NCBI GenBank assembly: GCA_003990765.1
Contig: RBNJ01000062.1
Location: 1 to 45,365, forward strand
Length of the DNA stretch: 45,365 bases
Direction: 5' to 3'
From: Jimgerdemannia flammicorona
Lineage: Eukaryota
Part shown: positions 1 to 28,970 of the stretch, piece by piece
Numbering within the stretch: the stretch's first letter is position 1
Layout of the letters: the number at the start of each line of letters is the position of its first letter
Translations under genes and position numbers: made by a program
The notes under the pieces: model-generated
Seen by the model: the letters and a program-made list of their open reading frames with translations, nothing else
Told to the model about the DNA's origin: nothing
The model's database searches: none

Positions 1-99
1 GTGAACCTTGTATAATCTTTGAAATCCGAAAACACCTACTGACATACTTTTGACCGGTTCCTTATGCCGGTCTTGGTTGCTATAAACCAACTGATGAGC

Positions 100-880
100 C
101 CCTTAAGCAAGGGCGAAACCGGTTCCATAGGCAACCCATCTTCCATTGTCGTGGGCAAACGCTCAAATTCTTGCTATGCGTCATCTACTGAACGTGGTCC
201 CGCGGCGAGAATGTGCCATGCGACGTCGAGCGCCACGCGCGTTTGAGGTGGTTCGAGTTTCCGACAAGGCCACACATTGATCCATGCGAGGACTTGCGCG
301 TCAGCCCCACGAACGATGGGACACCAGAGTCACTCTTCAAAATGTGGCGCCACTTGAAGCTCGCCCTTCTGCCCACACCGCTTGAGTTTTTGATGGATGC
401 CGTTGATGCGCCCACAGACACGTCACCGCATATGCAACCTTTTACGTGTATGTCCGCGCGAGCACCCAGTGACCTGCCAGACATTTTTCGAAGCTGCGCG
501 GAAAGGTGCAGGCACCACTGCCAGCGTACGTTAAATGGCGGCTCGAGACCAGGTGCCGTCGCGTGAAACTCCACCATAAGTTTGAGTATCTGCTGTTGTC
601 CATTGATGGAATCGAGTCATGGCGAGACTTCTTGATGTGATTCCAGCTTCACACTTTGTTCATACTTTTGGTTGTTGACCTCACACTCACCCTCATCTTC
701 CAACATGATCGCATAATCGAAAGCGAGCTTCTACAAAAAAAGAAACCCCGTCGAGTCCACAAACTCCTGCCTCGTCTTCAACGTCATCGACCCGCCGAAC
801 TGTTCCACAGGCCCCACCCGTACCAACGATCCTTCGCCTATTAACCTCTCTCTCAGCTCGGACACGAAAACCACATGCTC
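100..880 (-). pseudogene. CpG-rich degraded coding-like sequence of unknown family
   Basis: Bases 1-1700 keep CpGs, unlike most of the window. A minus frame reads ...FVSELRERLIGEG...FL*KLAFDYAIML...VSP*LDSINGQQQILKLMVEFHATAPGLE. After a frame change it reads CPIVRGADAQVLAWINVWPC...LPMEPVSPLLKGLISWF. No motif recognised. Confidence 0.2.
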
Positions 881-2756
881 GCGGCATTAGTCCACCTCCT
901 GCCATTTCAAGGAGCAGGATCCCGACGTCATATACGGATTAGTCCCTCGAGAATTGTGCTCCTCCGTCACGGCCTGAATGCGCGGGTCCCGGGCGCTTCA
1001 GAGAATCTGCGCTGCTTGGAGGATCTCGTTCATGAGGAGCTAGTTCACCTAGTTCATCGGCAGATTTGTCATAGGTAATGATGTTACGCTCGCTGGCAAT
1101 TTGATTGGCTGCAGTCTTTATCCATGTCAACCTCTTTAAATTATGAAAACACGCTCAACCCATACAACCTCTTTAAGATGCAATCTCTTAAGCTTCCCAG
1201 GGGCGACCCCAATCTGATCCCCGACAAGTATACTATCCTTGTACAATGCCTGCGGCCGCCTTTCCCATGTGTCGAGCCCATCGCCTTATGGTACTGAGTC
1301 CACACTTTTTTATTTATTTTTCTTGGAGGATATAAGAGAACATTCGCTCATGAAACGAAACGTGTCCAATAAGGCACCTCGATAAAATCATCCCTCAAGA
1401 ACCCAATTCTTTCCGATCCTTCTCTATCAGATTCAGCAAGAGAAGCCTCGACGTCAATAAACTGGCACGTGAGAGCTTCATCAGAGACCGGTGGGTAGAG
1501 AAGCTGGCGCATCCATCCATTCTCATTTTCATACATTGACGCTTATCCTCTTGCTCCCCTCGAAATTCAGATAAACTTGCTGCTAGGTTCTTGTTCATCC
1601 AGTGGGAGCAGAAGTCTGTTGAGGAGGCTGAAACTCTCGCTTCGCATGCTCTCCTGCCTCTCCACATGAGGACACTGCTCTTCTGCATACTTGTTCGTGT
1701 TTGGATGATTTTATTTTATTTTTATTTTATTTTTATATATATAATCAGAGGAATTATCGAATAAAGAATGATGTGTGCGTCCATTTTGTGCTAGGTATTC
1801 ACGTCTGCCCATTGGGAACTCAAAAGGATAGAGAGATTTTTTTTTTTTTTTTTTTTTTTATTTTTTGGTGGAGACGAGAGTTGGATAAGATTACAATGTT
1901 ATAGTATTACCTTTCTTTTACCTAAAGTGTTTAGTAGAGATTATTTTACTCCTTTCTATAGATCTTTAGAATATTATTGTAAATAGTATCAATGTTTAGC
2001 AAATATAAATTATGCTTGAGGAGATTAAAGATATTATATAATTAGTTACTTTTAATAGTTGTAAATAGTTGGTCTGTATATAATTTAGTGAATAAGTGAA
2101 ACTCTACTGAAGTATATATTGATTAAATAGAGTTTTTAGTATAGGAAGATTAGAAAATCATATTTTGGAAGATAACTATACTTATTATAGCTCAGAGGTT
2201 AATTTTATTTATTTTTATATTCTTTTAATTTTGTCTGAGTATCTTTCTCTTATATACATATTAGTATATGTTCAAATTGAATAAATATACATTCTAAACT
2301 TCTGGCTATATAATGTATAAGATTGACTGAGTATAATAAGATCAATATCATATATATATTTTTATTTTTTTTTATTTATTTTTTTATCTGTAGTAACTAT
2401 AAATAACCTTATCACCAATTTTGAATAAAGATTGTAAAGAGTATAAGGGATTATTAAAGATATTTGACATAAAGTATTATTAGTATTATAAATTACTAGA
2501 GTTTGGTCTATCAATATAAGAGCTTGAATATATTATATATTGTGATGTCTACAATTGATCCTGTCCAAATTCAGAGTACCCTGTGACCACAAGATCAGAT
2601 GACATTATGGTGCAATAACTGGTGACCAGCCCAATCTGTCAAGTGATTTCACTAAAAGAAGATAAGATGATCTGAGCCAAAATGAAGACCACATTATTTA
2701 AGGAACCATACTCCACCTCAGGGATCAGCACCAAAGAACCAAGTATCTACCACACA

Positions 2757-3746
2757 ATGCCTCCCATTCACCGATCCAACTAGACCTCCCACTGCTCTAC
2801 CCCTTTGCCTGGCCCAAAGACCCTGATCTTTGAAGCTATCAAGAAGGCCATCTGGAGCTCAGATACTTCTGAACACTTGAACTTCTACACCAAGGACCTT
2901 GGACACTTCATCAACTACTAGTATATAATGACCCAACAGCTCAAAGACACTACCGAACGAATGACCCTCTGGCATGACTACGAAATCGGACACTGCCTTC
3001 ACAAGGAGACTCAAGAAGATGACCAGGAAGACCTCATTACCGAAATGTTAACCACTAGCCAGCTAATCAAGAGAGCCCTCCATGTCCACCAAATCTTCCG
3101 CCATATTCCCTGGGCTATAGCACACTTACAAGGAGTGACTGCTGGCAGCCTCTCCCGCCTTTCAACCAAAGATGCTGACTGGATAGAATCTGAAGTAGCC
3201 AACTCTATTGGCAGCAACCGGGTTGCTGTAGGAAGCCAACAAACCGAACCTACTCAGCCAGGTTTCTACACCACCCCACTCTGAGACAACCATCAAGGTC
3301 ATCTAATGAGTCTTATGGAGATATTTGAAGGACTGCCCATTACCATAGAAGCACCTGTTGGAGCTACCCCAACCACCCACCACTCTGTCAGCCACAACTC
3401 ACATCTCATCATTTGGGAACCGAATCAAGAAGAAGCCCAAGAGGTCCCTATCTTTGAAGAAGAAGCCCAAGAACTCCAAGACCCTGTCTATGAAGAAACC
3501 CCCTCTGATACTGAAACTGACGAGTCTTCAGAAGAAGAAGAGGAGCAACAGAGAGTCTACCAGTCCTCTGTCCGCATTCAAGCTGTTCAAGGGTTGGAGA
3601 ATGTTGTTGAAGATGACTGGCCACTTTTCTACCCCCTCACCTCTTGGCCGGCACTCCCCCCCTTTGAGGAGAGATATGATGAAGAAGAAAACACAACCCA
3701 GCAAGATTTGCCCACCACAGATGAAGGGTACTACTATTCCCTCTAG
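2757..3746 (+). pseudogene. Gypsy accessory ORF (uncharacterised family) with acidic tail, inside D
   Basis: One frame: ATG 2757, ORF 2928-3284 and ORF 3306-3746, with 3 internal stops. Motifs LWHDYEIGHCL and KRALHVHQIF match the accessory ORFs of A, C and G. Confidence 0.65.
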
Positions 3747-3772
3747 AGTACCGCCCCATCAGCCGTGAGAAT

Positions 3773-4140
3773 CAGCATTTTTTGTCAGCAAGTCCGAATC
3801 TAGTATTGCTATCCAGTGCCACCATTTTCAGCATTTTTTGTCAGCAAGTCCGAATCCAGCATTGCTATCCAGTGCCACCATTTTCAGCATTTTTTGTCAG
3901 CAAGTCCGAATCCAGCATTGCTATCCAGTGCCACCGTTTTCAGTATTTTTTGTCAGCAAGTCAGTAAGTCCGAATCCAGCGTTGCTACCCTCCACAACCG
4001 TTTCTGGCAACAATCATCATATCATTTCAGCTCATCCATTTCCAGCATTGCTATCCAGTACCACTGTTTTCAGCATTTTTGTCAGCTCATCCGTTTTCAG
4101 CATTGCCACCCTCCACAACCATTTCCAGCGTTGCTATCCC
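3773..4140 (+). repeat. 56-bp tandem repeat (3 near-perfect units plus degenerate copies) in the U3-like part of D
   Basis: Unit cagcattttttgtcagcaagtccgaatccagcattgctatccagtgccaccatttt starts at 3773, 3829, 3885, and partially at 3941. Confidence 0.9.
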
Positions 4141-4251
4141 CTACAACCCAATCCGTAGTAAACAATAGCCTGCACCTCGCATCGTGCAAGCCAACAGCAT
4201 AGCAAATGTTCGCCACAATGTAGTATACCTTAGCCGTGCCCATAGCTAGCA

Positions 4252-4295
4252 AACTTGTATAAATAACCCATATTCTTAGAGTGAATAAACCTCAG
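4252..4295 (+). promoter_or_regulatory. LTR core: TATA-like box plus AATAAA polyadenylation signal (D)
   Basis: aacttgtataaataacccatattcttagagtgaataaacctcag, nearly identical to the block in the C LTRs and to the reverse complement in the A LTRs. Confidence 0.6.
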
Positions 4296-4437
4296 TCAAT
4301 TGGTTTTGAGAAATAACCACTGCCTCCAAGAGACTGGATAAATTCTGAGAACAAGATATGTAACAACCTAGAGCAATGGATCGCTCGGAAGTTTGAGTTA
4401 AAGAATTTTCTCTTGCCACGGAAAGAAAACATTACCA

Positions 4438-4500
4438 GACTGCCATTCGGACTGCTATTCGGACCGCCATTCAGACCACGCATTCGACCGCCATTCAAGA
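4438..4500 (+). repeat. About 12-bp degenerate tandem repeat (gaccgccattcg) in the U5-like part of D
   Basis: gactgccattcg gactgctattcg gaccgccattca gaccacgcattc gaccgccattca. Confidence 0.7.
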
Positions 4501-6067
4501 TTCAAGACCCTGGCAACACAGCTAAAGAATCCAAGGAACCCAAGTTACCCAGCCAAAGGATACTAGACCGCCAAAGACCAACCCGCTGCCAAAGACCCAA
4601 ATGACCGCCAGGAACCTTTCAAGTTAAACAAGATAGACGAGCAAGCCGTCAACCTCCATTTTCCCGACCTACTGTACCACGAACTGTTTAAAGTCAAGAC
4701 TATCGCCGAGTTTGCTACCAAGTTAATCGCCACCAGGAAATACCCTTTTCCACTAAACAATTGAGCCATCGACATCCTGAGCCAATGAACAATCGAACTC
4801 CTGCTGTTATTGCACGTTTCGAATGACCCGATCATGTGACCAATGACCCGCAACCATCGCAAACGCACTCATATCCATCGTGCGCTTCACCAAGTGGCAC
4901 ACATTGAGCTGTGCAGTCGAAGTTCATTGTACATAACCAACACTATAATATATATATCTATATATATTTAAGTATATTTATAAATAGATGTACATATCTA
5001 ATATATAAGTCATATAATAGATTCAGATTGAAGGATTTAGATTGAGTGATTCAGATTAAAGATTTGAATTGAGTAATTCAGATTGATCTAAGTTGGTTCA
5101 GATTATTTTAGATTTAAGATTTAGATCAAACTGCTATATAATAAATTAAATCTAGATTTGATTTGAATTAACTTATTTGAAGTACTACTTTCAAGTGTCT
5201 AGAATCTATTAAGTTAGGTGATAATAATATTATCTATACTCAAGGAAAATGAAATAAGGGATATATCTCTATAGTAATATTGTAGAATCTATTGATATCT
5301 TTTTAGATATATTATATACTTTAAATATCAGTAAAAAAAACCTCTTTTTAATAGGGAAAATGATATCTTATATTAATAAAGATATATATATATTTAAAGA
5401 ATACAACAGTCTATGACTTGAGTGAAAATAAAACAATCTTTTTATAATTAACAATATATAATAGTATAAAAGCTTCTCCATATATAATAACTATATAAGG
5501 GAATACTTTATTAAGATATTATTATATAGTTTTAGAAGAGATTTCTAGAAGTTCTGGATATTCTGAAAGACTGTTTTCTTAAGATTAAGATTAATTTTAT
5601 ATAGAGTATATTCTCTATACTTATTGATTTCAAGATCTGATTGACATCTCAATCAAATTCCTTTTCTAGACTTATTTTAGATATTCAGGAGTTTTTATAT
5701 TTCAGGAAGTTTAAGAAAACTAAGACCATCTTAAGTGCTTCAAATAGATACAATTTATCTGGATGAGATTCAATTCAGATTCATCATGTGATGAATTTGA
5801 ATCAACTCAGATTGGTCTTATGATCTGATCTAGATTGATCCAGATTGATCTAGATTACTTGAAATCTTTAGTAACATCACCCTTTCTTTATCTTTTGTGG
5901 CATCACTCTTTCTTTATCTTTAGTGATATCATTCTTTTTTTATTTTCTCTTTTTTTATTTTCTCTTTCTTTATTCTCTCTAATATTTTTTTTATTTCTCC
6001 TATTACATCATAAACAAATAAATAGTAGCTCTTAATTGTACATTTGTCTACTTATTTTTTTACCAAA

Positions 6068-8700
6068 TGATCATCAAAGGAGGAAATATTCAATATAAAA
6101 AAGCACTCTCTACTGATAATTTAAATTCTTTCTCATATGAGTAGTATATAAGCTGCTCATCAAAAGCCAAAGTAGTAATAGTGATAGCAATGACAATAGT
6201 AATGACAATAGTGATGAGGATGAGTAAGAATTCTAGCAATAACTCACAGTGACTCTTTAGACCTCGGAATCTATAGTCCTTATAGCTATATATGTGAGAG
6301 TCTTTTTAGAGCAGTCAATAATAGATATAGGTTGTCTTTTCACTACTATATTTAAATTTTCACAATATAACTAAGTTAATTTTGTACTATTTCTCTTTTT
6401 CTCAGGGTCTACAGCTCTATAGTTAGATCTGTTAACTTTATTTACAACATCTGGTCAAGATGAAGAAAGGCAGGAAAAGATTGTAAGGTATACCTTTGGT
6501 AACTGAGCTGTTAAGTCAATATATCATATGGTAGAGATCTCAAAAGTATTATAAGCAAGTCATTATGAGCAATTTTGTATAACTTATCTACCCAAATTAT
6601 CTGCAAGTAATTTATTTTTATACTCTTTTCTGAATACTTACTCTATATTTTATTTAACTTCATTTTTATATATTCTCCTCTAAAAACTCCTATATGATAC
6701 TTATATATAATCTGTCTATATACTTAACTCAGCTCACTACTCAGATCAATGCTCAGTTCCACTATAGAGAAGAATTCAAAGTTATCTAAGTTCAACTACA
6801 TCTGGCATCTGATCAAATAGAGAAGTTCAAGGATAAGTTATTCAGCATGAGTAACATCAGTATTACTATCAAGACTTGGGAGTCTATATTCAAATCAGAG
6901 CCAATTATTCTAGATCAAGGAGTCCATTGACCTACTGGAGTATTCAATAATGAAGAGAAATACATCATTGTTAATGAATATAGAGAGGTTGTTATAGTAG
7001 TGATAAGAAATCTCTATAGTGATAAGCTTTGTTGCTATATTGATGAGATTTGCTAGAATTGCATCCAATACTAGGTAGAGAAAAAGAGAGGGCATAAAAA
7101 GCAGAGAGGGAGAGTTTGGACAGAAACCATGTATACTACAATATTGAAAAAGAGTGGATTCCCTAGAGTTTTTTCTATATTTGTCTCCTTTTTTTTGAGA
7201 TTTTCTTTATAAATCTATTTTTGTTAAATTTCCAGAGATATACAGAATTCTGTACCCTTATCAGAACTTTAGAAGTATTATTGAAGAATAAGCTGCATAT
7301 AAGCATAGCAATGGCAGCTATGATCTGAAGATCTTTGACCAGATAGCTAGACTGAACAGCAGGCTAGCTTAGTAGTGCTCTCAGTATAGCTATATATATA
7401 TTCTTAGTATAATTTAGCATATTATATAAGGTGAGAAGCTTGATTTTTTTTTAGTGCAGCCTGAGGGTTTCTGTCTCCTGCTTGTGAAAAGAAAGAATTT
7501 AACTAGATGCTATCTATTTTGGTAGGTTTCTAAGCCAGGACTCCTAGGGCTGGACAAAGGACAGATATTCTCCAGTACTGTCTAACAATATGAGGTCCTA
7601 GGCTAAGAGTTTATTCAACTATATACTTACATTATATCAGAGTACATCAGGTGCAATATTTCTCTATCTATATATATAAATAACAATATTACTCTAGTAA
7701 TATTTTACATTCTGGAAAGAAGGGGCCCAACTTAAGAGGATAGTGGCAACATCTGGTATGATCTCAACTATGATTTTGGAGTCCTGTTTGTAGCCAACAC
7801 AGCTATTCTATTCTAACCACATGACCTCCACAGTACTGTTGCTTTCAAGGTGAGCTCAGATACTATAGTTATTGTACTCATAATAGATAATAGACTTATT
7901 GAGATCTGGGACTAGTGAGTGGAGCTATTTTATAAATAGATAGCCTTATATATAAGTTAGGTAGTCTTTTGTAAGAATTAGGCTATCTTTAGTAAGAGTT
8001 AGGTAACTAGGTGTCTCTTTTGTTTTATAGTATTAGTTTTTAGCTTTTAGTCTTTTGCTGGACTCTTCTGGCCCCTTGGGGTTAGAATATTTACTAGAGT
8101 CCAATCTGTACTAGAGTGCAACTACTTGAAGTTGCTTCTTATAGTGGGTCAGTGGGCCACAAATTCTGTATACTCTCTCTAATCTATACTCTACACCAAC
8201 CTATATCTTGGAGCTGCCCCATATTACTGAGGGAGGGTTACAAATTTTACATATTCCCTCTACTGACCCTGCTAACTCCCACTCAACTCCTTTTTGTTTT
8301 GCAGTACTAGTTTTCACTTTTGCTGAGCTCTACTGACCCCTTGGCCCCACTTTGTAATACTGCTAGTATAGTACTGTAGTGTAGGATTAGAGTATCTGTC
8401 AGACCTAAATCTGTGCCAGAGTCTGATCTGCACCAGAGTCCAACTGCTTGAAGATACTTCTTACAGTATTTCATTGGGTTGCAAAATCTGCAGCTCTCTC
8501 TGACCAGACTTCTGTACCAACTTGTAGCTTGGGATCACTTCTTACTACTAGTAGAGGGCTACAAATTTTGTATAATCTCTTTACTAACCCTGCTAACTCC
8601 TGCTGATCCCCCACTAATTCAACTAACCTCCTCCTCACTTAGGCTCATGAGGGGCCACAAATGCTCTCTTTGCTGGCCATCTTATATTCTGAGCTGAACT
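6068..8700 (+). pseudogene. Spliced passenger gene within the hAT; putative TET/JBP-like 2OG-Fe(II) dioxygenase with acidic N-terminus and repetitive C-terminus
   Basis: Exon from 7526 reads ...YIRCNISLSIYINNNITLVIFYILERRGPT*EDSGNIWYDLNYDFGVLFVANTAILF*PHDLHSTVAF...DNRLIEIWD. Reverting C>T/G>A changes gives H-x-D-x-D (7673-7687), GGN...DY...AANT...FRP, and H-G-T (His intact at 7829). Acceptor-like sites end at 6405, 7235 and 7525; donor-like sites lie near 6607, 7131 and 7431. Gene ends approximate. Confidence 0.55.
8080..8610 (+). repeat. Diverged direct duplication, about 210 bp, offset about 320 bp
   Basis: 8095-8290 (agagtccaatctgtactagagtgcaactacttgaag...gagggttacaaatttt...ctgaccctgctaactcc) versus 8415-8610 (agagtctgatctgcaccagagtccaactgcttgaag...gagggctacaaatttt...ctaaccctgctaactcc). 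Confidence 0.75.
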
Positions 8701-10628
8701 CTCTTTTTTTCTTTCTTTAAATAATTTATAAAAAATAATTTATTTTCAACTCTTTTTTATTTAAAGCTACAGGACTCACTCAATTTTAGTGGCCTATACC
8801 CCACCAAGCCTTTAGACATATATAGACCTGGATTGCCTCAGTATTCAGTACACATCTCTTAGAGAAAACAAGATCTGCTCTACTAGAGAATATCTACTTG
8901 ACTGGAGTATTGATGGTAGGAATGGCTAGGTAGTTCCAAGATATACCATATAGGCTGAGGAAGTCGGTTTGACATATCCATAGCCACTTACCCCAGGGAT
9001 TAGAATAGTAGTTAGAATGATGGATAAAATTGGCCCAACCCTACTAACTACCTGTGGAAAGACAACCCACCTTCTACTAATTGAGTACCTCTGTGTCCTT
9101 TAGTAGGATCATATTGTTACTGGTAAGATAAATAGTAAGTTTGTCTATTGATAGCAGTTCTTCCACTGATGGCTCTCTCTTCCTCTTTCTGCTGAAGTAA
9201 ATATGTAATAAAAGAGATCCTTCAGTATATTCATTAAGACTTCAACCAGAACTTTATTATAATATATAGTTTTTCTGATAAGTTTCAATTAGAACTTACT
9301 TGGCTTCTTCAATATAGTACTACTCCCAGCCCTAATCTTTGTGGTATTATAGCTTTAAGCATGAATCCAATACTGTTTTGAGAAAGAGAGTGAGTTTTGC
9401 AGAGATTTCTCTTTTTTTTTTTTTTTGGAAAGAGTAACTGCTATGCTAATATACCTATACTAATTGAGTATATAAGAGCATCTGTTTTGAAGTAGTATTT
9501 TCTAAGCTTGCTCAGAGCAACTATTATAGCATCTTTCTGATCTGAGCTAAACCAGAAATCACTACTACTCTTCAGCTTTTCCTTAAGCTTATCCTCTAGT
9601 CAGATGCAGAGCTTATTGTTAGAGTTGTTTGTTTGATAATATTCTTCATACAATCATCAAAACACTGGTAGTTAAGAATAATACATTGTTATATTACTAT
9701 GTAAGGTAGATAAAATGAATATAGAGGCAAAGTAATGATCACTTATTATTAAAATACTGACAAAATTCCTTAGTACATCCCACTTACTTTCATCTATAGC
9801 CTCACCTTACATTTCCTTATTAGCAACAACTGTGGAATCTATTATTTTATTTTATTTTATTTTTTTAAAAAAAAAAATATACATTTTAAAATTAATTAAT
9901 TAACAATTCTCTGTCTTCCAAAACAATTTCCTTCAGCCAATTGGAAAAAGAGCACATACTACAACAAACTCCAGCATGCACTGGATCATTGTAAATATTG
10001 GGTTCCAATATATATATATATCTAATATCAGCTCTTTCAGAACTAAACTGATTGCTCTATACTGTATAGCAAATTTATTTCATTATTATAAAGATGATCA
10101 GACCAATACAATCAGTTTGTATAGTTTAGAATTAATACTCAGAGTTCTCTCACTTCCAGATATTTTGTCTATCTGTATCAGATAATCCTGAATAGTAAGA
10201 TTCATATATAGGCCTGATAACATATATGGCAGTTTTCTATACTGAAGATCATATTTTCCTATTGAAGGTTGACTGCTAAATTTTGGAAAAATGTTGAGTT
10301 GATTGTAGTATTATCTATAGTAATGGCCAAAATCTGTACTTGAAATTTTCAGTTAGTAAATTTATATAAAAATAAATAACAATTAAAATCTGTTTTATTT
10401 TAAAACTTCTCTCAAAAATGACAACCAGATGATAAGCCCACCTTTTTATCTTAGTTGTAATCCTGAGCTTCCAGATATACATAACTAATAAAAGCATCTA
10501 CAATGTTTTCTCCTGAATGAAGACCAGCAAGTTTGATGAAGTTAAGGGTAAGATATTTAAGTTGCCAATTGAGGTCAATCCAATAATCAGTAATACTCAG
10601 AAATAAAATTACATTGAGAGGTATCTAT

Positions 10629-11823
10629 TGTAATGTGTCTGGCTCAATGAAGGCAAATTATAAGGTTGGGGGTTGATGTAGTTTGGCTTGAGCCCCCAGT
10701 TACTTTGTTAAAAAGCAACAAAATGTTCAAGTATCATATAGGTGTCTAGTGGTATAATATTCAAGCTGGAGAATTCTGTATGCGATTTCCTAATTTGGCA
10801 GTATTCTTAGGCTGATGGCGATTTGCATGTTGATCCTTTGTGAGCAAGTGGATTTCCTTCTTTGAGTGGTGAACTAATTTCATGCTATCCGGCGATCTTG
10901 AGTAATCAGGTGGATTTCCTTAAAAGCACAGACTCTCTGGAGATGGCAATTAGTTTCCTTGCAGGTTGCTGGTGTGACAGCAATCTTTGTCAATTGGATT
11001 CCTTTTCTGGCAATCAATTGGTACAGTTTGAGTGGTGCAGTTCGAGCAGTGCAATTCGGTTTACTTGGATGATGCAATTTAAATGGACGATGCCATCTTT
11101 GGATGATGAATGAGGTGGATTGGCAGAATATGGCAGATCGGCAGACAAAAATGTGGTGGACTTCTTGAAAAACAGCAGCTGGTAAGTTGCATCAAAGACT
11201 GGCTTCGTTTGTGTAAATGATTTACTGTGAAGTTGAATTGAGGACTGGCTTTTGAGAGCAGCAGGCTTAAACTGGTGGATTACTCAAAAAATGGCAGCTT
11301 ATTCCTTAAGCAGCAGAAAATGGCAGACTTCTTTTATCAGAAAGTGGACTGGAGTGGAAATGAACAAAGCTCACAATCTCCTAGTAGTGGCTGTAGAGCA
11401 GGCATTTCTCCTAAATATTGTAATCCAATTCCTTTAGGATCAAGTGGCTTTTGGCAGGCATATCTCTCGAAGTGTAGTAGGCAGACTTGTCTTTTGCTTT
11501 TGAACTTTTGGAACTGAGGTTTATTCACTCTTGTCTCTGGGGTATTTTATACAAGTTGGTTGCTATCTGGTTGCTATCTGGCTAACTATAGAATGCTATT
11601 TATGGGGTGACATTTGCTGTCAGAGTGGTAGCTACTGTCAGGGTGACAGCTACTGTCAGAGTGACAGCTACTGTCAGGGTGACAGCCACTATCAGGGGTT
11701 TTTCTTTCTTTAGCTATCTGGGTTATTTATACATTTTCTGCAGCAATGGTTGCTGGTTATAATGCTAATGTTCACATCACCTGGTTAGGTTTTGAGATTG
11801 CTACATTTTTGCAGCTTGTTACA
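10629..11823 (-). repeat. 3' LTR of A
   Basis: TGTAAT...GTTACA, a direct repeat of 19361-20560. Adjacent to cagtggggactga (PPT-like, minus strand 11824-11836). Confidence 0.95.
11606..11697. repeat. 18-bp tandem repeat of palindromic TGACAG-N3-CTGTCA units in the U3 of the A LTR (also at about 20340-20432)
   Basis: gtgacagctactgtcagg repeated about 5 times with eroded variants, present in both LTRs. Confidence 0.85.
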
Positions 11824-11862
11824 TCAGTCCCCACTGAAGAATAGTCTGTCCCAGACTGTTCT

Positions 11863-12369
11863 TCAGTCATCATCCCAATAGGCATAAGCTGCTTCTGCAT
11901 CTATGTCCATTCTATCATCTTCATTATCTGTACCAGGGTCACTCCATTCTGGCTCTGGATCCTCTTCTTGTTCTTCAGGAAACAGAGTGTCCACTTGTTA
12001 AAGAATACTCTGAAAGGTGGTCTCATTTATCTGATGGATATCATTGAGATAGAAGTGAGCCTGTACCAAGGCTCTAACATTTTGATTGTACAGAGTGTAG
12101 ATTCATTTGGCAGTTCTTGCTTCTCTGAGAGTAATTCCAGCTGGGCTCCTGATGTAAGGTTGTTCAGTCAATAGCTGTCCAATGTTGTAGAAGGCTTGTA
12201 GATGGTGGATCTGAAGTAACCTCTGGGCAATGGCAAGGTTCTCTTGATGCTTCTGGATCAATTGTATAGGAGTTCCTTCAAGTTGGCAAAACTGGGATAG
12301 GGGAATTGGCAGAGCTTGGAAAGAGCTGAGAATGAGGGTCTGGAGGCATTGATCTATTCTCTGAGTCAT
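11863..12369 (-). pseudogene. Gypsy accessory ORF downstream of integrase in A
   Basis: MTQRIDQCLQ...LQAFYNIGQLL...RTAK*IYTLY...acidic tail EEQEEDPEPEWSDPGTDNEDD. Its ATG overlaps the apparent pol stop (ATGA, 12369-12366). Confidence 0.7.
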
Positions 12370-15300
12370 GGTTTGTACAGGTATATCTTGAGGCAATTGA
12401 TGTAGACTGGAGTTCAAGACACATCTATCCATGCTTCTTATATAAATGCTAGTTCCTCTGATATTGTGTACAAGATATGGTCCTTCCCATTTCAGTTCCA
12501 GTTTGGCAGCAAAATTTGTTTCTATCATGCTTCTCCAAACTAGGACTTGATTGCCTATCTTGATCTTCAGATCCTTCTGTTTCTGGTCATAATACTTCTT
12601 TTGTCTTTCTTGGGCCTTGATAATCTGATTTCAGGCTTCATTTCTCAGCTAATCTCCTTTTTCAAGAAGTTTTCCGAGATTCTCATGATCAGCAGTTCTG
12701 GTTTTCTTAGCAAACATAATTTTGTATTTGGTTGAGGCTGCAGGGGTATTTCGGATTTCCCCCAGGATTTCGGGTAAGCAGAGGTTCCAATTGGTAGGAT
12801 TGACCTTGGCTAATCCTTTCTTGATGATCTGGTTCATTCTTTCAGTCATTCCATTGGTTTGTGGATGATAGGAGGTAGTTCCTTTCAGGTGGATCCCATG
12901 AATTCAGGCATAACTTGAGATTATGTTATTCACGAACTCAGTTCCTTGGTCAGAGATAAGTTCTTCAGGGGGTCCAAATCAGTGGATAAGTTCATGGAGG
13001 TATCCAACAATGGTCAGGGCATCTGCAATCTCTATGGGGTATGCTTCGGGCCATTTGGTCAAGTATTCAACAAACACCAGGATGTACTTGTTCTGTCTTG
13101 GTGTTACTGGTAGGAGTCCTATCACATCTACTCCCCATCTTTGAAAGATGTGAGTGGGTGGGGGAATCGGTTGTAGAGGGGCTTGATAGTTCTTCTTTCC
13201 TTGATACTTCTGGCAGGTGTCACATTTCTGGATAGTGTCTCGGACTTGTGTTCTGAGGTGGGGCCAATGCTGATATTGTTTTTGAATTTTGTCTTCTGTA
13301 CTTGCCTGTCCTTGGTGAGCTTTCTGGTATTCTTTTCAGATGAGATCTTCTTATTCCTTGATGGTCACAGAGACTTCCTTTAGGGTACAGTTCCAGGGGG
13401 CACCCTTTCTTTGGTTCATTAGGGCATGTGGAAAAGAACATCAACATTGTTGTGAGTTCTTCCTGCTTTGTGGATGATGTCGATTTAATAATCTTGCAGA
13501 ATGAGGATCCATCTGGCAAGAATTCTGATAGGGTCTTTTCGGTGCAGTAGCCATTTGAGGGCTGCATGGTCAGTGATCAGAGTGAACTTCTTTCTGATAA
13601 GATAATGTTTAAACAAGGTGACTGCCCATATGACTGTAAGGTATTCCAATTTGGTGCTCCCATAATTGGCCTGTTGCTTGTTAGTGGCTCTGCTTGCATA
13701 AGCTATCACATGGTGCTGTTTATCAGGTCCTTCTTGTGCTAGGATTGCTCTGAGACCATTCTTGAATGCATTAGTATACAGAATGAAGGATTTCTATAGG
13801 TCTGGTCAGACTAGGATTTGTGCTGAGGTCAGGCATTGTTGCAGTTTTTGGAAGGCTTCTTTTTGTGGTTCTTTCTATTAGAATAGTACTCCTTACTTTA
13901 GCAGGGTTCAAATTGGGGTGGAGATTTCAGTAAATCTCTTGATAAATCTTCTATAGTATGATGCAAGCATCAAGAAGGATAGGGCTTCTTTCAGAGTCTT
14001 TGGGACAGGAAAATTGTTGACTTTTTCTATCTTCTTGGAGTCTGTATGTATTCCTTCTTTAGAGACCATGAATCCAAGGAATTCGAGTTTCTGCTTCCCA
14101 AAGTAACACTTCTTGGAGTTGAGTCTCAGGTGGTTTTGCTGGGTGAGTTTAAAAAACTCCTCAAGGTCATGCAGGTGGTCTTCAAAATTTGCTGAGTAAA
14201 TGTTGGAATCATCTACATAGATGATTAGGCAGTGGTGAATAAGAGGGGCATATACTGAGTTCATCATTTGCTGGAAGGTTGGGGGTGCATTATAGAGTCC
14301 AAAGGGCATTCGAAGATATTCAAACAATTTTCCTAGGGCAAGGAAAGCTGTCTTTTGAATGTCCTTGGGATCCATAAGTATCTCATAGAATCCTGCAAAT
14401 AAATTCATGCTGCTGAAGTATCTTGCATTTTGTAGTTGGTCCAGTAGGTCATCAATTTGGGGCAAGGGGTAGACATCTTTTTCAGTTACTGAGTTGAGTT
14501 TTCTAAAGTCTACAATAAGTCTCTATCCTCCTTTCTTTGGCACAATAAGTATAGGGCTAGCCCAGGAGTTGGTAGAAGGTCAGATGACTCCATTGTCTAA
14601 AAGTTCCTGAATATGTTCTTTTTTGAATGTTTTTAGATGATGGGGTATTCTGTAGGGTTTCTGTTGGATGGGTACTGCATTTCCTGTATTTATACTGTGG
14701 TGGTATGACGGGTTGTATGGTAGGTTGCCATAGTCTATAGTGAAGATGTCCTGATATTTATGCAGAAGTTCAGTCAATTGATGTTGTTGCTGAGGTGTCA
14801 ATTCTTCTCCAATGTTTGTGGAAGGCTTCACTTTCTCCTGGGTCGCAGAGGGGCCTTTTCTTTCTTCTGTGACCTTTTGCTGTTTCCCTGTAAGTTTAGT
14901 TCATAAACTTCTCTATATGTTCGGTTGAGATAAGGTACCAGATGTCCAATGACAGTTCCCTTTGGCAGGATGATGTTGTCCTAGCCCATATTGGTTGCTT
15001 GGAAGTGTACTGGGTTCATCTTGTCTGGAAATGTATATCCTTCTATGTACAGATGTTGGATTTCTTCACTTGGTTCAAAGAAGATGTTTCTGGGATCGGG
15101 TGGTGCAAAGATTTCGATAGTAGCCTGTTCTCCAGGTTCTAGGATGAGGTTCTTGTGAAGCTTCACTGGTTGGCGGAGTACTTGCTGTGGGACATTTGTC
15201 TTAAATTGATTGACTTGGAGGAGATGTACTTCTTTTCTATCTGAGCTCCCAAATCCTTTGGTCTGTCTGGTGCCTTGAGTGAGTTCTGGTACTTCTTGTA

Positions 15301-18300
15301 GCTAAGGGGTCTTGTATTTGAGGAAGACCGCCTGTGTAATTTTGTCTTTCTTGTAGATTTGAATCCATTCACTGCTTCCATTCTTCAGGATGATCTTGAT
15401 TTCACCTATGTATCCTGGGTCAATTGTTCCTCCTTCAGTGGTGACTCCTTGCAGGGCTAAGCCAGATCTTGAGATCAACTGAATGTATGTTCCTCTTGGT
15501 GGTTGTATGGCTAAACCAGTTCTGATGAGTGTTGTCTTGTTAGGTCCTATGGTTGTGTTATATAGGCTGCAAAGGTCATAACCAACATCTTCTTGGTGAG
15601 CCTTTTTGAGTGGAATTGCCTTGGGATGTAGCAGGGTGAATTATACAAGATCCTTGCCAGGTGAAGGCTGTCCTTGAGCTGAGGCTCCTGTGACATTAGT
15701 TCTCTATCCTCTGATGTTTAGGTGTGGCCATCTTACTCCAGTGGAGGGATCTCGAAGATAATTGATTCCTCTTTTTCTGGTAGGGTCTAGTGCTTCCATA
15801 AAGTTGATTGCATCTTCTATCCATCCCTGTCAAGTTGCATAGTGAATAAGAGCTAGGATATCTTCTCCTAGGTCATATATCTTGAGGACCTTTTTCACAG
15901 GCTTCTTCTTTCTTTTTTTGTTTCTGATTCTTGCTCGGTTATCTCCTCTTTTGAGTGTATGTACAATCACATTCTTGCTAAGATGGATTTTTTCGTGGTC
16001 ACAGGTCCAGCATCTAGGATATTGTCCATGATAACAGTATCTCATAGCTTGGAAGTATTCTTTCTTTTTTCAATTTCATTCAGCTTGGGGAATCAGCATC
16101 TATTTGCATTGTACTTGGGGTAGAGAGGGGCTTTACTTCTGTTTGGGTGAAGTATCCTACTCCAACTTGTCTTCTTTGAAGTATAGTGACAGACTCTTGG
16201 AATGAGGTTCCTTCTGCAATGATTTTCAGGGATTCTGGTACAATACACTGCCTTGCTTGCTGGTCCAATATGTGGCATTGGTAACAGTAGTCTTTTGGTG
16301 AATGGAAAACGACTTGGTGAGGGCATCTACCTAATTGGAAGGCTCTTTCTTGGTGAGTTTCGGGCCTTGAGACCACTAGTTGAGTACTGGGTCCAGCTTC
16401 TTCATTCCAGGGGGTGTTATCATTTTCTCCTTCTTGTGGTACCCAATTTGGATCATCCCAGGCAACAATTGCAGGGAGGTCTTCATTTTCGGAAATGCCA
16501 TCATCTTCTTCCTCTGATGGTTGCTCCCAAATTGCTTGAACTTCTGCTACTTCAATTTCAGGATTCTTTGGCTGGGTGTCATGGAGGTACTTCTTCTTCT
16601 TTCTTCTGCAGTCAGAACAGGTTGTGCCAGGGTTTTTTCGAGTTCCAATATATCTGGATGAGTGTTCCTCGCATTTTTGTCTTTGGAGGCATTTGGTACA
16701 TCCTCTGGCTTTACCAGCAATGGCTCCAATTGTGATGGGGATTGTATCTTGAGCCCAAACATTATCTTCTGGTCTGTCTTATACTATGTTGATTTGGGGC
16801 CATAGTCTGGGGTCATTGTTATCTTCAGAATCCTTTTCTTCTTCTTCTGTTGTGGATTCTTCACTACTGGTATATTCTTCTTGAATGGTGACCTTTTTCT
16901 TCTTTTTTGTTGGCTCAAAGCTAGTGACTTTAACTCTGTACTTCTTTCCTCTGTAGTTAAATTTGAGGGCTTGTTGTCTAATGTTGACATCTGCATTCAT
17001 CTCTTTCATCCAGTTGGTGCCAAGGATCATATCATAGGTGACAGCTTCAGTTACAACTGCCTTGGAGATAGCAAACTGGATGTGTCTAAGAGTGATGGTA
17101 ATATTTTGGACTTCTCCCAAGGGCTGAGTTTGGACTCCATCTGCTACTATGATGGTGAGACTAGAGGGTCCATCAATGGGTCATTGAATGCTGTCTAAGA
17201 ATTTCTTGACAATGATATATATAGCTGCTCCTGTATCAATGAGAATTTTCGCCTTCTGGCCTCCAATTTCTCCAAACAGGTAGGTACTGACATACCTTTC
17301 TGCAGCTTTTATTGCTGAGGGTGCTGGTTCTTCTTGAGGGATGGGAACTCTTCCTGTATGAGATCTGGTGGTTTGTAGCAATTTGTTTCTGACTCCAGCA
17401 GATGTGAGCTGAAGGAATTGCAGGAGTGGTACTTCCATCTTGGCTTCTTGGATCTTTTGCCAAGCTTCATTATAGATGTCCTGGGGTATAGTCTTTGGGA
17501 TGTATTTCTTTTTGGGCTTTGGAATCTTTGTTTCCACTTCTGGTTCTTCTTCCATTTCTTCATCAGCAGATTCTGGTATGGGGTCTTCTTCATTGTTGAT
17601 GTCTTCTGGAACAAAAGGTGAAGGGGACTGGGGAGGTGTGTCAACCTGTTCTTCTCCATCTTCTTCATTTTGAATGATCCTTTTGCTTATTCTTTTGGGT
17701 GGCCTTCCTACTGGTTGGATTCGGTCTTCTGCTCTCTTCCTTTTTTCTGCTGGGTAGACTGTTTTTCTGTATTCAGCCTTGGTTGGGTACAGGTCTAGGT
17801 CACTGTATTCCTCACTGTCACTCTGCTCATAGTCTTCGACTGGGTGAGCTTCTGTTCTTTTGTTGTGGGTGTCCTTTCGATTTGATAGTTTGGAATTTCT
17901 TGGGCTATCTTGGCATTCAGAAGCATAGTGGCCTTGCTGTCCACACTTGTAGCATTGGACTTGTGTCCTATCTCTTAGAGGATAGTTTCAATTTTCGGAG
18001 GGTGGGTAGCTTCTCTGGTAACCCTGGTTTTGTGGGGGATATCTTGGCTGATAATTCCGATTTTCACGTGGATAGCTTGGCTGAAAATTCCGATTTTTGC
18101 ATGTGGTGAGTTTTTCGATTTGCCCAACCAGTCTGTCTACTTTTGAGTTGAGGTCCTGGATCTCATTCTTCTCTTTCTTCCATTCCTTGGTGAGTTTCTC
18201 TCCTCTTGGTTCTCCTTGAAGAATTCCTTGTAAGGCTTTGACCAGGAGGTCTTCCTTATCTTCTTTCTTGTTGTCTGTCCAAGTGGTTCCTTGCTTAACA

Positions 18301-19280
18301 TTAAAATATCCTTGGGCAGCATCAACTTGCTCCTCAGGCTTCCTGATGCCCAAGGTTCGGACATGTTGAGCAATATTGGGTGGAATTCCATTCATGAATG
18401 TCATTGGGCCAATAATGTCTTGATTGGCCACATTGAATCCAGCAGCATGCATTCTTTTCTGGATTCTGGTAAAGAATGCTCAGGGAGATTCTCCAAGATT
18501 CATCTTCATTCTCATGATAGATTCTTGGGCCTTGTGGCAAGTTTCATTTCCAGCATACTTTTCAATGTTGCATGGCTTCATACTGTTTATCATCAGTATT
18601 TGCATTTGCTATGACATCTCCTAGATCTGTGTCAACATCACTTGCTGCTCTGATGAAGATGCCTTTAGCTGGTTCTCTTAGTTGTGCTCTAAAGACATTA
18701 ATTCACCTTTGGGTTGTCAAGTTTCTCAGGGCTCCTATCCCTTTGATTGCATCTATGAATTCTCTTGGATCTTCTTCTGGGTACCCTGCAAATGTGGGTA
18801 GTGGAACAGCCATTTCGTCTTCACTGCTTTCTGATTCTGTGTATGATCCTGAGCTGTTGACTGTTGAGAGATAGCTGTCTGAGAGAACTGTAGATAGTGC
18901 TCTTCTCTATACTATTCTGGGGAGCCTTGTAGGTTGGACTCTTGAGATTGGAGTAGCTGGTCTTGACCATCTTGGTAAATCAGAGAAGACTCTTGGTGGA
19001 AATATTTCAAGATGATGATTGAGGTCTCTGATGAGGTCATCGAAATCTTGGTTGGCTGTTTCATCAGGTGTATTCACAAACTGTGGGCTAGGAGTTCGGA
19101 CTATTGGTGGTAGATTTCATGCAGTACTGACTTCTGCAGATTCTGGTCCTTCTGATGCTGAGTGATATCTGATTCTAGAGGAAACTATGTCTCTTCCTGT
19201 CCAAACACTCTGTAATACTGGTATTTCTTCTTCTGTTATGGCTGAGATTGATACTGTGTCAAAGGTTGTAGGTATGCTAG
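12366..19280 (-). pseudogene. Gag-Pol polyprotein of A
   Basis: CYKCGQQGHYASEC knuckle (about 17940); LIDTGA protease (about 17230); RT YPLPQIDDLL, MPFGLYNAPPTFQ, YVDD; RNase H IAYASR, LITDHAALKWL; IN CDTC, ISDQGTEF, YHPQTNGMTERMN; WEGPY. Many stops. Start approximate. Confidence 0.95.
15240..15645 (-). pseudogene. dUTPase domain in Pol of A, between protease and RT
   Basis: LLHPKAIPLKKAHQEDVGYDL...RTGLAIQPPRGTYIQLISRSGLALQGVTTEGGTIDPGYIGEIKIIL...KDKITQAVF...RQTKGFGSSD. All five trimeric dUTPase motifs are recognisable. Confidence 0.9.
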
Positions 19281-19341
19281 TATCCAGGTTGAATGTTGGG
19301 TTCTTGTGAGCTGAAAAGTCACACTAATTCTTTGAGAATAT

Positions 19342-19358
19342 TCTCAGTTGAGCCCCCA
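19342..19358 (-). other. Primer-binding site of A, tRNA-Pro-like
   Basis: Minus strand TGGGGGCTCAACTGAGA, 2 nt after the LTR. Resembles the tRNA-Pro PBS TGGGGGCTCGTCCGGGA, with mostly transition differences. Confidence 0.7.
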
Positions 19359-19360
19359 GA

Positions 19361-20560
19361 TGTAATGTACCTGGCTCAATAGAGGTAAATTACAAGGTTG
19401 GGGGTTGATGTAGTTTGGCTTAAGCCCCCAGTTACTTCATTAAAAAGTAACAAAATGTTCAAGTATTGTATAGGTATCTAGTGGCATAATATTCAAGCTA
19501 GAGAATTCTGCATTCGATTTTCTAATTTGGTGGCATTCTTGGGCTGACAGTAATTTGTATGTTGATCCTTTGTGAGCAAGCAGATTTCCTTCTTTGAGCA
19601 GTGAACTAATTTCATACTACCCAGCAATTTTGAGTAATCAGGCAGATTTCCTTAAAAGTGCAGACTCTCTAGGGATGGTGATCAGTTTCCTTGCAGGTTG
19701 CTGGCATGACAGTGATCTTTGTCAATCAGATTCCTTTTCTGGCAATTGCTCGGTATGGTTTGAGCAGTGCATTTCAAGCAGTGCGATTTGGTTTACTTGA
19801 ATGATGCAATTTAAATGGATGATGCAGTCTTTGGACAATGAATGAGGCAGATCAGCAGAATGTAGTGGATCGGCAGACAAAAACATGGCAGACTTCTTGA
19901 AAAATGGCAGCTGGCAAGTTGTGTCAAAGACTGGCTTCATTTGCATGAATAATTCACTGTGAAGTTGCATCAAGGACTGGCTTTTGAGAGTGGTGGGCTT
20001 AAACTGGTAGATTACTCGAAAAATGGCAGCTTATTCCTTAAGTGGTAGAAAACAGCAGACTTCTTTGTATCGGAAAGTGGACCAGAGTGGAAATGAACAA
20101 AGCTCACAATCTCCTAGTAGTGGCTCTAGAGCAGATGTTTCTCCTAAGTGTTGCAATCCAATTCCTTTAGGATTAAGTGACTTTTGGCAGGTGTATTTCT
20201 TGAAGTGTAATAAGAAGACTTATCTTTTGCTTTTGAACTTTTGGAACTGAGATTTATTCACTCTTGTCTCTGGGGTATTTTATACAAGTTGGTTGCTATC
20301 TGATTACTATCTGGCTAACTATAGAATGCTATTTATGGGGTGACATTCACTGTCAGGGTAGCAGCTACTGTCAAGGTGACAGCCACTATTAGGGTGACAG
20401 CTATGTACTGTCAGAGTGATAGCCACTGTTAGGGATTTTCCTTTCTTTAGCTATCTGGGTTATTTATACATTTTCCACAGCAATGGTTGCTGGTTACTAT
20501 GCTAATGTTCGTGTTGCCTGGTCAGGTTTCGAGATTGCTACATTTTTGCAGCTTGTTATA
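19361..20560 (-). repeat. 5' LTR of A
   Basis: TGTAAT...GTTATA, a direct repeat of 10629-11823. Confidence 0.95.
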
Positions 20561-21382
20561 CTATATATGAATAATAAATAAAATTCTGCCTACTGAATTC
20601 TATTTATTGAATGTGAGATTAAATTGGTGAGCTCTTTATATATATATATAATTAAGCTTGTAATGATCATAGTATTGCTCTTATTTATTTATTTTACCTA
20701 AAGTATTTAATAAAGATTTTCATACTCCTTCTTATAGATCTCTAGGACATCTTTATAAATAGTGTCAGCACTTGGCAGATATATATAAATTATGCTTGAG
20801 AAGAGCAAAGAAGCTATGTAACTGGTCACTCTCAATGATTGTGAATGGTTGGTCTACATACACAATTAAGTAAATAAGTCAATTTTAAAATTCTGCTAAA
20901 AAATATGACTAAATATTTTTAATTAAATAGAATAGTCAATATGGAATTGGTTGGACAATCAGATAAATATACCCACTATAGCTTGGATATCAATTTTATT
21001 TATTTTTATGTTCTTTTTGATTTTATCAGAGTGTTTATCTTTTATATGTTGATATATATTTAAAGTTGACCCATTAAGCATTTTGAACTACTGACTGTGT
21101 AGAATACAAGAGTTGGTAGAAATAAGATCATATGTATGTCAAACAAAAGTATCAGTTATATTATAAATGTACCTTCTTTTTTTAATTTTTTACCTACAAT
21201 AATTACAAATAATATCATCTCCAGTCTTAGTACAATGTTGCTAAATTTGGAGTGAGGATTATATAGAAAGTGTAGAACTATTGAGAATGTTTGACTTGAA
21301 GCATCATCAGTACTATAAACTATTGAAGACTGTTCTGTTGATATATATATTTATATATATATATATATATATTTGTATATAT

Positions 21383-21829
21383 TATAATAGTCAATCTAAA
21401 TCAGTAATTTGAATTAGAAAATTAGACATTTGATCATGGTACCTGAATTCAATTCCCAAAATAGCTTAGCCTTACAAATAGCAGTCATATTTCACTACTG
21501 ACAAAAATTTTACTATTGGCAAAGTTTTGGGAGATAGCAAAATCTTTGCAAATGGTAAAAGATTCAATACTGATAAAAAATAACTCATTACTTAGCCACC
21601 TTATAGCTAGAAAACTTATATAAATGACCCAGTATCTTAGAGTGAATAAACCTCAGATTAAAATAGTTCAAAGCAAAGAGAAAGTAAAGGAACTAGTAAG
21701 TCTGTAGGTAGATATACTTTGAACTTACTCACTCCTGCATCCTAAGGACTCTGTGGAGTCAAAGAAGATCAAGTTTTTAAGATATAGAAATCTGACATAC
21801 TTCCAAGGTTAAGCATCTGCTATGTTACA
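21383..21829 (+). repeat. 5' LTR of C
   Basis: TATAAT (eroded TGTAAT)...GTTACA, matches 29325-29772. Confidence 0.9.
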
Positions 21830-21949
21830 ACTTGGTGCCCATTGGCTGATGACTTAAGACAAATCTCTCACTTTCAAGCAGAACAACAAACAACTACTAC
21901 TACTTGAACAATCATATAAACCAAGTTAAGATATCTAGACAAGATAGAT

Positions 21950-23533: not shown

Positions 23534-23668
23534 ATGCAACTGTCTTCAGGATCACAAGTGCTGCCCAATAAGCCATAAAAAGACACTGGTGTTCTACTGA
23601 GCCACCCAAAATGGAGAAATCCTTTGACAGCATCCAGAGTATAGTCCAGACCCACTTGTCATGGATTT

Positions 23669-23834
23669 TGTTGAGATTTCTAGCTAATCAACTCGGTATG
23701 TAGCTCACGTGAAGGTGGCGCAGCTCATGTGTGAGGACATCATCAGTGGAAACGTCATCAATGCGTAAATACGCGCTTCGCGCATATCAATAAAGATTGC
23801 TCCTTTATCCCTCAAATTCCAGTATTTCACAATA
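23669..23834 (+). repeat. 5' LTR of B
   Basis: TGTTGAG...CACAATA, matches 28805-28970. Confidence 0.97.
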
Positions 23835-23846
23835 AGTTATGAGCCC
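23835..23846 (+). other. Copia-type PBS (internal / half tRNA-iMet type)
   Basis: AGTTATGAGCCC directly after the LTR, matching the GGTTATG(G/A)GCCC PBS of copia-like elements. Confidence 0.75.
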
Positions 23847-23908
23847 CGGTTAGTGGCTAACCAAAACACCTCTTTAATATATGCTACACTACTCTACATG
23901 CAAAAGAG

Positions 23909-28466: not shown

Positions 28467-28804
28467 TCGACGCAAATCACGAGACTTTCCTAACGGCGAA
28501 AAGCCTCCAACATATACATCTTACATCCCCTATGAACATTGCACATCCGTACTGCATTTCTATTTGCAAGCAAGCAAGCAAACATTTCAAGCGGACATCC
28601 ATTTCAGACATTCGGACTGTTTATCAGTTCCTAGCGCACCCTTTCTACTACATATTCTACCTATTTTAGTGCTTATAAGCAGGGAATTCGGATATTTTTA
28701 GATTGATAGATAGCACCCATTCTACCTATCGTTTCCTGCATTGCATTCATTAGTTAGTTAGCATGCATTTCTGCAGTTTGAGCGCATATCTCATTGAGCG
28801 GGAG

Positions 28805-28970
28805 TGTTGAGATTTCTAGCTAATCAACTCGGTATGTAGCTCACATGAAGGTGGCGCAGCTCATGTGTGAGGACATCATCAGTGGAAACGTCATCAACGC
28901 GTAAATACGTGCTTCACACATATCAATAAAGATTGCTCCTTTATCTCTCAAATTCCAGTATTTCACAATA
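28805..28970 (+). repeat. 3' LTR of B
   Basis: Direct repeat of 23669-23834. Confidence 0.97.

Follow-up and report, generated by a model that had tools for sequence, protein, structure and literature searches.

The DNA considered here is a stretch of 45,365 nucleotides from Jimgerdemannia flammicorona (contig RBNJ01000062.1), hereafter called the window, and is a field of nested, decayed transposable elements, probably of a fungus. Among them is a hAT-like element at positions 5733-30299, which measures approximately 6.2 kb once the long terminal repeat (LTR) retrotransposons nested in it are removed. Besides the remnant of a putative hAT transposase on the minus strand, this element contains the remnant of a second, spliced gene on the plus strand, whose product is best read as a dioxygenase of the TET-like kind. 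A preliminary description of the window had placed such a gene tail-to-tail with the transposase and inside the limits of the element, an arrangement that is borne out by the natural relatives of the gene, by the matches to its exons, and by the termini of the element.

The hAT-like element and its limits

The bounds of the element are based on imperfect terminal inverted repeats (TIRs), on a target site duplication (TSD) matching at seven of eight positions, and on a second, partial copy that has the same terminus. The left TIR, AAGTGCTTCAAATAGA, occupies 5733-5748 on the plus strand and shows 11 identities and four transitions over 16 positions when compared with the reverse complement of 30284-30299. 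Its partner is the right end at 30299, which reads TAGTACTCCAAATAAG as reverse complement, and the terminus sequence of the element is TAGTRCTYCAAATA. Outside the TIRs, the left TSD ACCATCTT (5725-5732) is paired with AACATCTT (30300-30307), and an agreement of seven bases in eight has a chance probability of about 1e-3, as estimated from the local base composition. An alternative TSD of 7 bp can be drawn between 5725-5731 and 30300-30306 (ACCATCT/AACATCT, 6/7), which needs one extra base in the left TIR; judged from this single insertion, a length of 8 bp fits best and 7 bp is also possible. Inwards from the left TIR, a subterminal region at 5749-5870 (plus strand) carries short GATTCA and GATTGATC-type repeats, recognised by direct reading, and aligns loosely with the subterminal region of the right side. 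The latter, together with the right TIR that ends at 30299, covers 29774-30299 (minus strand) and includes 14-nt tandem repeats at 29846-30217.

The 13-mer AGTRCTYCAAATA is found in the window as an exact match only at three termini (5733, 30299, and 5187). When one mismatch is allowed there are five matches against 0.56 expected, a number reached by none of 100 shuffles; the one-mismatch sites at 3322 and 45257 were rejected as chance matches, with no similarity past the motif. The terminus at 5187 belongs to a second copy of the same hAT family, located at 1912-5187 on the minus strand, which is left-truncated and, according to repeat matches and to the alignment of the terminus, retains only an N-terminal piece of the transposase and the right terminus. 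Its positions 1912-2344 are 70% identical to 20688-21130 of the first copy, and 5021-5187 are 76% identical to 30132-30299. The terminus of the family is fixed by this second copy, because similarity to the right end of the first one spans its last ~60 nt before 5187 and ceases in the flanks.

The transposase remnant is divided in two parts by a nested retrotransposon. The C-terminal two thirds lie at 8790-10628 on the minus strand, where the recognisable blocks stop at 10628, at the insertion of a gypsy element, and the frame picks up again in the N-terminal part at 20561-21381, also on the minus strand. Among the minus-strand blocks recognised by eye, we take to be of hAT type the stretch D-x-W ... 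H-S-G-E-N-I (10451-10624), an I-D-N at ~10300, L-x-K-Y-Y-x-K-T-D (9441-9599), and the C-terminal stretch at ~8860-9040. The N-terminal part adds a BED-like stretch at 20959-21087 and a hAT-like block at 20765-20878, both again seen by eye. A hAT transposase would have an RNase-H-like DDE core and a C-terminal hAT dimerisation domain (Pfam PF05699); all these frames are heavily decayed, and none of them matched a Pfam profile.

The dioxygenase-like gene and its relatives

The second gene is a genuine, spliced plus-strand remnant. Its last exon, at 7526-7939, holds the catalytic core, contains six in-frame stops and closes with a TAG stop at 7937-7939; the frame from 7526 reads exactly as quoted in the preliminary description. 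With the stops written as X, this 133-residue reading was compared by phmmer with 1.84 billion representative proteins and retrieved five of them at E<=1e-3. The best relative is P0001, a metagenome protein of 136 aa with 61% identity over 130 residues (E 1.2e-43), whose residues 2-133 are placed by tblastn on 7535-7930 of the plus strand without gaps. The longest one, P0005, has 374 aa. Word-indexed homologue searches added only P0006, and a scan of metagenome contigs from the Joint Genome Institute (JGI) gave two loci, L001 and L002, which are 99% identical over 2.7 kb. L001 is an intact three-exon gene, and the exons of L002 are broken by in-frame stops. All members of the family come from metagenome or Logan assemblies and bear no informative name.

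The AT-rich, stop-ridden nature of the sequence and the lack of a Pfam match would be in line with a frame that is open by chance in decayed repeats. This explanation is practically impossible: the similarity to P0001, seen both with phmmer and with tblastn, refutes it, since 132 codons align without a gap and with 61% identity to a protein of independent, metagenomic origin (E 1e-43 against 1.84 billion proteins), and the remnant has four further relatives and shares intron positions with L001.

The first recognisable exon is located at 6790-7170 on the plus strand. Homology covers 6931-7170, which matches residues 92-172 of P0005 (E 2e-3), and 6931-7137 matches exon 1 of L001 (E 9e-5), both values referring to a 3.2-kb subject; the frame extends back to 6790 through one stop. 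The middle exon probably starts at 7238-7273 (plus strand), a prediction drawn from a weak match of 12 residues to the start of exon 2 of L001 (E 0.47). The start point of the last exon is the same in the window, L001, and P0001, and the three-exon layout is common to the window gene and L001. Gene and transposase point towards each other, and the spacer of ~850-920 bp that separates them contains two direct repeats of ~185 nt (8096-8279 and 8418-8600, 73% identity). When L001 was compared with the window by tblastx, only the dioxygenase core matched.

A cluster at 90% identity around P0003 has 28 members distributed over many contigs. The metagenome relatives look multi-copy and partly decayed, and the gene may sit on repeats in that lineage as well.

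Catalytic motifs and mutation spectrum

The preliminary description had reconstructed an H-x-D motif and a distal His in the product of this gene, and both are present in natural relatives. P0001, P0002, P0005, P0006, and L001 carry P-T-H-x-D followed by H-G-T/S ~50 residues on, and in P0003 and P0004 H-V-N stands in place of H-V-D. Taking these relatives as stand-ins for a family consensus, the His expected at codon 7673 and the Asp expected at codon 7679 are thus both found. The candidate triad would consist of H283, D285, and H335 in the numbering of P0005. R298 of the same protein is invariant in the alignment of relatives and constitutes a candidate 2-oxoglutarate-binding residue; downstream of the distal His, no Arg is conserved among the aligned relatives.

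In the window, the metal-binding position (7673-7681, plus strand) reads Y-I-N. At codon 7673 a TAT replaces the H of P0001, a single C>T step (H>Y), and at codon 7679 an AAT replaces its D, a single G>A step (D>N). The distal His is retained, in a motif at 7826-7834 (plus strand) that reads H-S-T where the alignment of relatives shows H-G-T/S, and the change of its second residue is again of the G>A kind (codon 7832, AGT where P0001 has G, G>S). Throughout the exon, 80 of 132 codons agree with the residues of P0001 and 52 differ. A dominance of C>T and G>A changes had been predicted beforehand and fits the comparison: 42 of the 52 mismatches need no more than C>T or G>A changes to arise from a codon of the P0001 residue, and all six in-frame stops (6/6) fall at W or Q positions of P0001. 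The reverse direction accounts for five of the 52 mismatches, and each transversion class for 0-2.

The same process has left its mark on both genes of the element. The ratio of observed to expected CpG is 0.01 across 5733-8960 and 0.02 across 8800-10628, and every sub-stretch of 5733-10628 has values of 0.00-0.03 with a GC content of 0.30-0.40; the decay of the dioxygenase-like gene equals that of the transposase. For comparison, the ratio is 1.05 in a young copia element nested in the same region and 1.10 in the first kb of the window. The LTRs of the nested gypsy element differ from each other at 156 positions, 148 of which are transitions. The commonest dinucleotide difference between them is CA versus TG (36 cases), the pattern expected if CpG sites had decayed on one strand in one LTR copy and on the other strand in its partner. 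Another 19 differences each are of the CA/TA and TG/TA kinds and show that C>T change also took place outside CpG. The LTR differences as a whole point to a CpG-centred C>T decay plus this further change outside CpG. The LTR pairs 21382-21830/29324-29773 and 33329-33785/38972-39439 also differ almost only by transitions.

Comparison with known TET-carrying transposons

TET/JBP genes in transposons of fungi are the subject of Kojima 2025 (Biology (Basel) 14:1741, PMC12730594), and the statements made here on that work refer to the portions of its text and supplement that were available. It reports such genes in complete elements of eleven DNA-transposon lineages and, under the name of hAT7, twenty TET-carrying hAT families from six Puccinia species, with a 7-bp TSD and in all cases a PU-type enzyme. 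The pairing of a hAT with a TET gene is thus already in print, and the earlier statement that no such pairing had been described is outdated. A literature search found no paper on TET-carrying hAT transposons besides this one. The published consensus sequences of TET-carrying hAT7 elements are 8-10 kb long (Table S1, PMC12730594). The same source reports a transfer of TET genes from one transposon family to another without terminal signatures, and proposes that the TET enzymes of transposons act against silencing by methylation and against C>T hypermutation.

The hAT7 elements of Puccinia resemble the window element in being DNA transposons of hAT type with a transposase and a TET/JBP-like dioxygenase, in a host that hypermutates C to T in repeats, and an escape from methylation silencing has been proposed for them (PMC12730594). 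They differ from it in several respects, as far as the available parts of the article and supplement allow a comparison. The PU-type blocks of their enzymes (GG-x-MW-x-GWRK and PH-x-D) were not seen by eye in the window's family, and a PU-type identity of the window enzyme was rejected by eye against Table S1. In three named hAT7 families the TET gene lies upstream of the transposase and in the same orientation, whereas in the window it lies downstream and is convergent. The hAT7 termini shown begin with CAACGG or CAGCGA, those of the window with TAGTAC or AAGTGC, and the TSD of 7 bp in hAT7 compares with a best fit of 8 bp in the window element, where 7 bp is possible. No identity with a listed hAT7 family was seen: none of five terminus words from the window (0/5) stands at a terminus in the supplement, whose cells are given to 400 characters.

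The PE type, found in Agaricales and Pezizomycetes, has H-x-E as its hallmark (PMC12730594). By eye, and not by computation, this type and the window's family appear colinear block for block, with (Y/H)-SAG, A-(L/V)-(L/V)-(W/F)-N, and (I/L)-P-R-(M/L)-(N/D) in this order, followed by H-x-(E/D) with an R ~15 residues later, by GG-x-F ... YG ... N-(S/T) ... HGT, and by G-(L/M)-S. Both are also nearly invisible to sequence profiles, the PE type giving E values of 1.4 and 19 with HHpred, and comparison with the AlphaFold database ties the PE type to CMD1, NgTET, and CcTET at E<1e-5 (PMC12730594). The window's family has H-x-D where the PE type has H-x-E, and the abstract of that paper names no hAT among the carriers of PE-type genes.

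The AG type, represented by CcTet of Coprinopsis cinerea (PF20515), sits on Kyakuja and Zisupton. Clusters with PF20515 are the nearest named ones to the window's family by language-model features, and CcTet (7vpn_A) aligns over 149 residues, with a Z of 4.9, to a low-confidence model of the family. In contrast, no member of the family matches PF20515, and the distance from H-x-D to GG-x-(F/W)-Y is ~25 residues in the family, compared with 8 residues from H-x-D to W-Y-D-L in the AG rows of the published supplement that were compared.

Ownership of the gene and nature of its product

The reading that is favoured here, with moderate confidence, is that the stretch 5733-30299 represents a single, dead copy of an autonomous cut-and-paste transposon of hAT type in which the TET-like dioxygenase gene belongs to the element. 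A number of results weigh against it, and concern the transposase, the ownership of the gene, and the nature of its product. Regarding the first, Pfam searches with all six frames of 5001-12500 and with shorter pieces gave no relevant match for the transposase, and the transposase piece had 0 matches among PDB sequences. Because of this, the minus-strand frame is a putative hAT transposase, assigned from the termini, the TSD, and the motifs recognised by eye.

Regarding the second, the dioxygenase-like gene is present in one copy only, the second copy in the window being truncated before that part, and the metagenome contigs that carry relatives (3.7 kb and 2.9 kb) show no transposase within 0.7-1.7 kb of the gene. 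Both results would fit a gene foreign to the hAT family, which never moved with it and arrived by secondary nested insertion, by a one-off capture or transduplication, or through a chimera. The same explanation draws on the 3.1 kb that separate the left TIR from the end of the transposase, a long distance for a hAT, on the pair of 185-nt direct repeats at 8096-8600, and on the passage of TET genes between transposon families without terminal signatures (PMC12730594). However, the gene is not enclosed by a TIR, LTR, or TSD, such inverted repeats as occur being AT-rich and 70-86% complementary, and it has decayed to the same degree as the transposase. Apart from the internal 185-nt pair, no other repeat of the window overlaps 5860-8860. 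The length is not exceptional either, as the 8-10 kb of the TET-carrying hAT7 consensus sequences make a long two-gene hAT normal in that group (PMC12730594, Table S1). A foreign origin of the gene is accordingly considered rather unlikely.

Regarding the third, the preliminary description had called the product TET/JBP-like. In Pfam, P0001-P0005 hit 0 families at E<=10, and P0006, the exons of L001, and the window reading returned only unrelated sub-threshold rows, so that no tested member has a significant match to the TET/JBP (PF12851) or the Tet-like PF20515 profile. A profile of the family found 0 matches among PDB sequences at E<=10. Two AlphaFold models, built on shallow alignments, are poor (mean pLDDT 34.1 and 40.1), although both display, at this low confidence, helices followed by a run of beta strands, and Foldseek found nothing in the PDB at E<=1e-3. 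The top rows of a fold search with VIA-align, in which the second, low-confidence model was compared with 48,161 PDB representative chains and any Z <8 counts as a lead only, are generic cupins, with a Z of 5.0-6.0 over ~60 residues. Moreover, no conserved Arg is seen by eye where the PU-type sequences available for comparison have R-L-G-L-S.

These negatives are what another 2-oxoglutarate/Fe(II) oxygenase, a cupin, or a non-enzymatic beta-helix protein would give, with no action on methylated DNA and a superficial likeness to TET; no 2-oxoglutarate-binding Arg could be assigned either, R298 being a candidate only. What speaks for a TET-like protein comes from other approaches. In the ESM Atlas, the first neighbour of P0005 is a cluster from Basidiomycota, 15% of whose members carry PF20515 (score 0.96, 209 of 256 features). 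Among named clusters only, the family sets shown for 30 neighbours of P0006 are PF20515 (8) and Tet_JBP (22), with scores of 0.90-0.94, and the eight PF20515 neighbours include clusters with 72% and 97% of their members annotated. In the same fold search, four solved TET-family structures, NgTET1, CcTet, TET2, and CMD1, are in the top 50 with a Z of 4.3-4.9, 149-169 residues, and a root-mean-square deviation of 5.1-6.2. Theirs are the longest alignments in those 50 rows, most others covering ~55-80 residues, and they run from the N-terminal helices into the barrel. The H-x-D ... H triad and its spacing are compatible with a 2-oxoglutarate/Fe(II) oxygenase, and the by-eye colinearity with the PE type connects the family to an enzyme that is itself structurally tied to CMD1, NgTET, and CcTET (PMC12730594). 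An oxygenase of another kind, a cupin, or a non-enzymatic beta-helix protein is judged unlikely.

The best-supported reading of the product is thus a double-stranded beta-helix dioxygenase of the TET-like kind. From the initial assignment, what stands is this likeness, carried by language-model neighbours, weak fold matches, and the triad; membership in TET/JBP proper, for which a match to Tet_JBP or PF20515 would speak, is only suggested.

Nested retrotransposons and other elements of the window

The transposase is split by a Ty3/gypsy LTR retrotransposon at 10629-20560 (minus strand), recognised from long minus-strand pol and gag frames. Its LTRs, at 10629-11821 and 19361-20558, are 87% identical and are flanked by the 4-bp repeat CTAT/CTAT. 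A second nested LTR element, at 21382-29773, lies between the N-terminal part of the transposase and the right subterminal region, and is delimited by the repeat pair 21382-21830/29324-29773 (87% identity). It holds in turn the copia element at 23669-28970, with a repeat pair 23669-23834/28805-28970. This copia looks young and possibly intact, with an open frame of 1064 aa, two more long frames, LTRs 96% identical, and a normal CpG content; with a CpG ratio of 1.05 versus 0.01-0.13 in its neighbours, it has so far been left largely untouched by that decay.

The two hAT copies share an interruption at one TA-rich spot between the start of the transposase and the right end (2345-4947 in the second copy, 21382-29773 in the first). 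Within the interruption of the second copy, a stretch of 54 nt (4242-4295) shares 89-94% identity with the LTR of the retroelement that sits inside the first copy. Either this spot is an insertion hot spot, or the copies were duplicated after that insertion.

Besides these elements, 5204-5496 and 42831-43153 hold decayed remains of a single copia-like family, which are 73% identical and run in opposite directions, and the former occupies part of the 545 bp that separate the two hAT copies. Positions 3770-4130 contain 56-nt tandem repeats (<=97% identical) within long open frames of unusual composition. The start of the window (1-1900), which adjoins the truncated hAT copy, is GC-rich (0.53 in the first kb), has normal CpG, and looks like ordinary non-repeat DNA or a gene.

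Proposed role and implications

The favoured reading suggests the following mechanism. The plus-strand, three-exon gene at ~6790-7939 converges on the minus-strand transposase of the same element, and belongs to a small, unannotated family known so far only from metagenome fragments, with an H-x-D ... H triad and a C-terminal half predicted to be rich in beta strands. We infer that the gene travelled with the hAT family and that, in a live element, its product was an active enzyme that would have acted on the DNA of the element itself, with oxidation of 5-methylcytosine or of a different modified base. Such oxidation would blunt both the methylation-linked silencing and the C>T hypermutation that the host aims at repeats, the same anti-silencing role that has been proposed for the TET-carrying transposons of rust fungi (PMC12730594). 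In this copy the host defence would appear to have won, with C>T and G>A changes throughout both genes, the H and D ligands lost, and no CpG left.

The relation to the published cases allows a further, more tentative proposal, somewhat less likely than not: an independent, so far undescribed capture, by a canonical hAT that is not among the published TET-carrying hAT7 elements, of a TET-like dioxygenase that would be the fourth kind known from transposons. This enzyme would be a sister of the PE type that keeps H-x-D, invisible to Pfam and otherwise present only in unnamed metagenome fragments, one lineage of which would be multi-copy and decaying.

Transposons with their own TET-like enzyme are candidates for a counter-defence against DNA-methylation-based genome defence in fungi. 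To the cases in the available parts of the published survey, the window adds a hAT with a dioxygenase that profiles place in none of the three types published so far, and with an order of genes unlike that of the published hAT elements (PMC12730594). The copy is dead, and its value is therefore that of a pointer to a family rather than that of a functioning system. Should the gene turn out to be carried throughout the family, it would represent one more independent capture and would offer a handle on an enzyme family that is invisible to Pfam. An independent capture, if true, would broaden the set of carriers as well as that of enzyme types known from the conflict of transposons in fungi with methylation-linked mutation.

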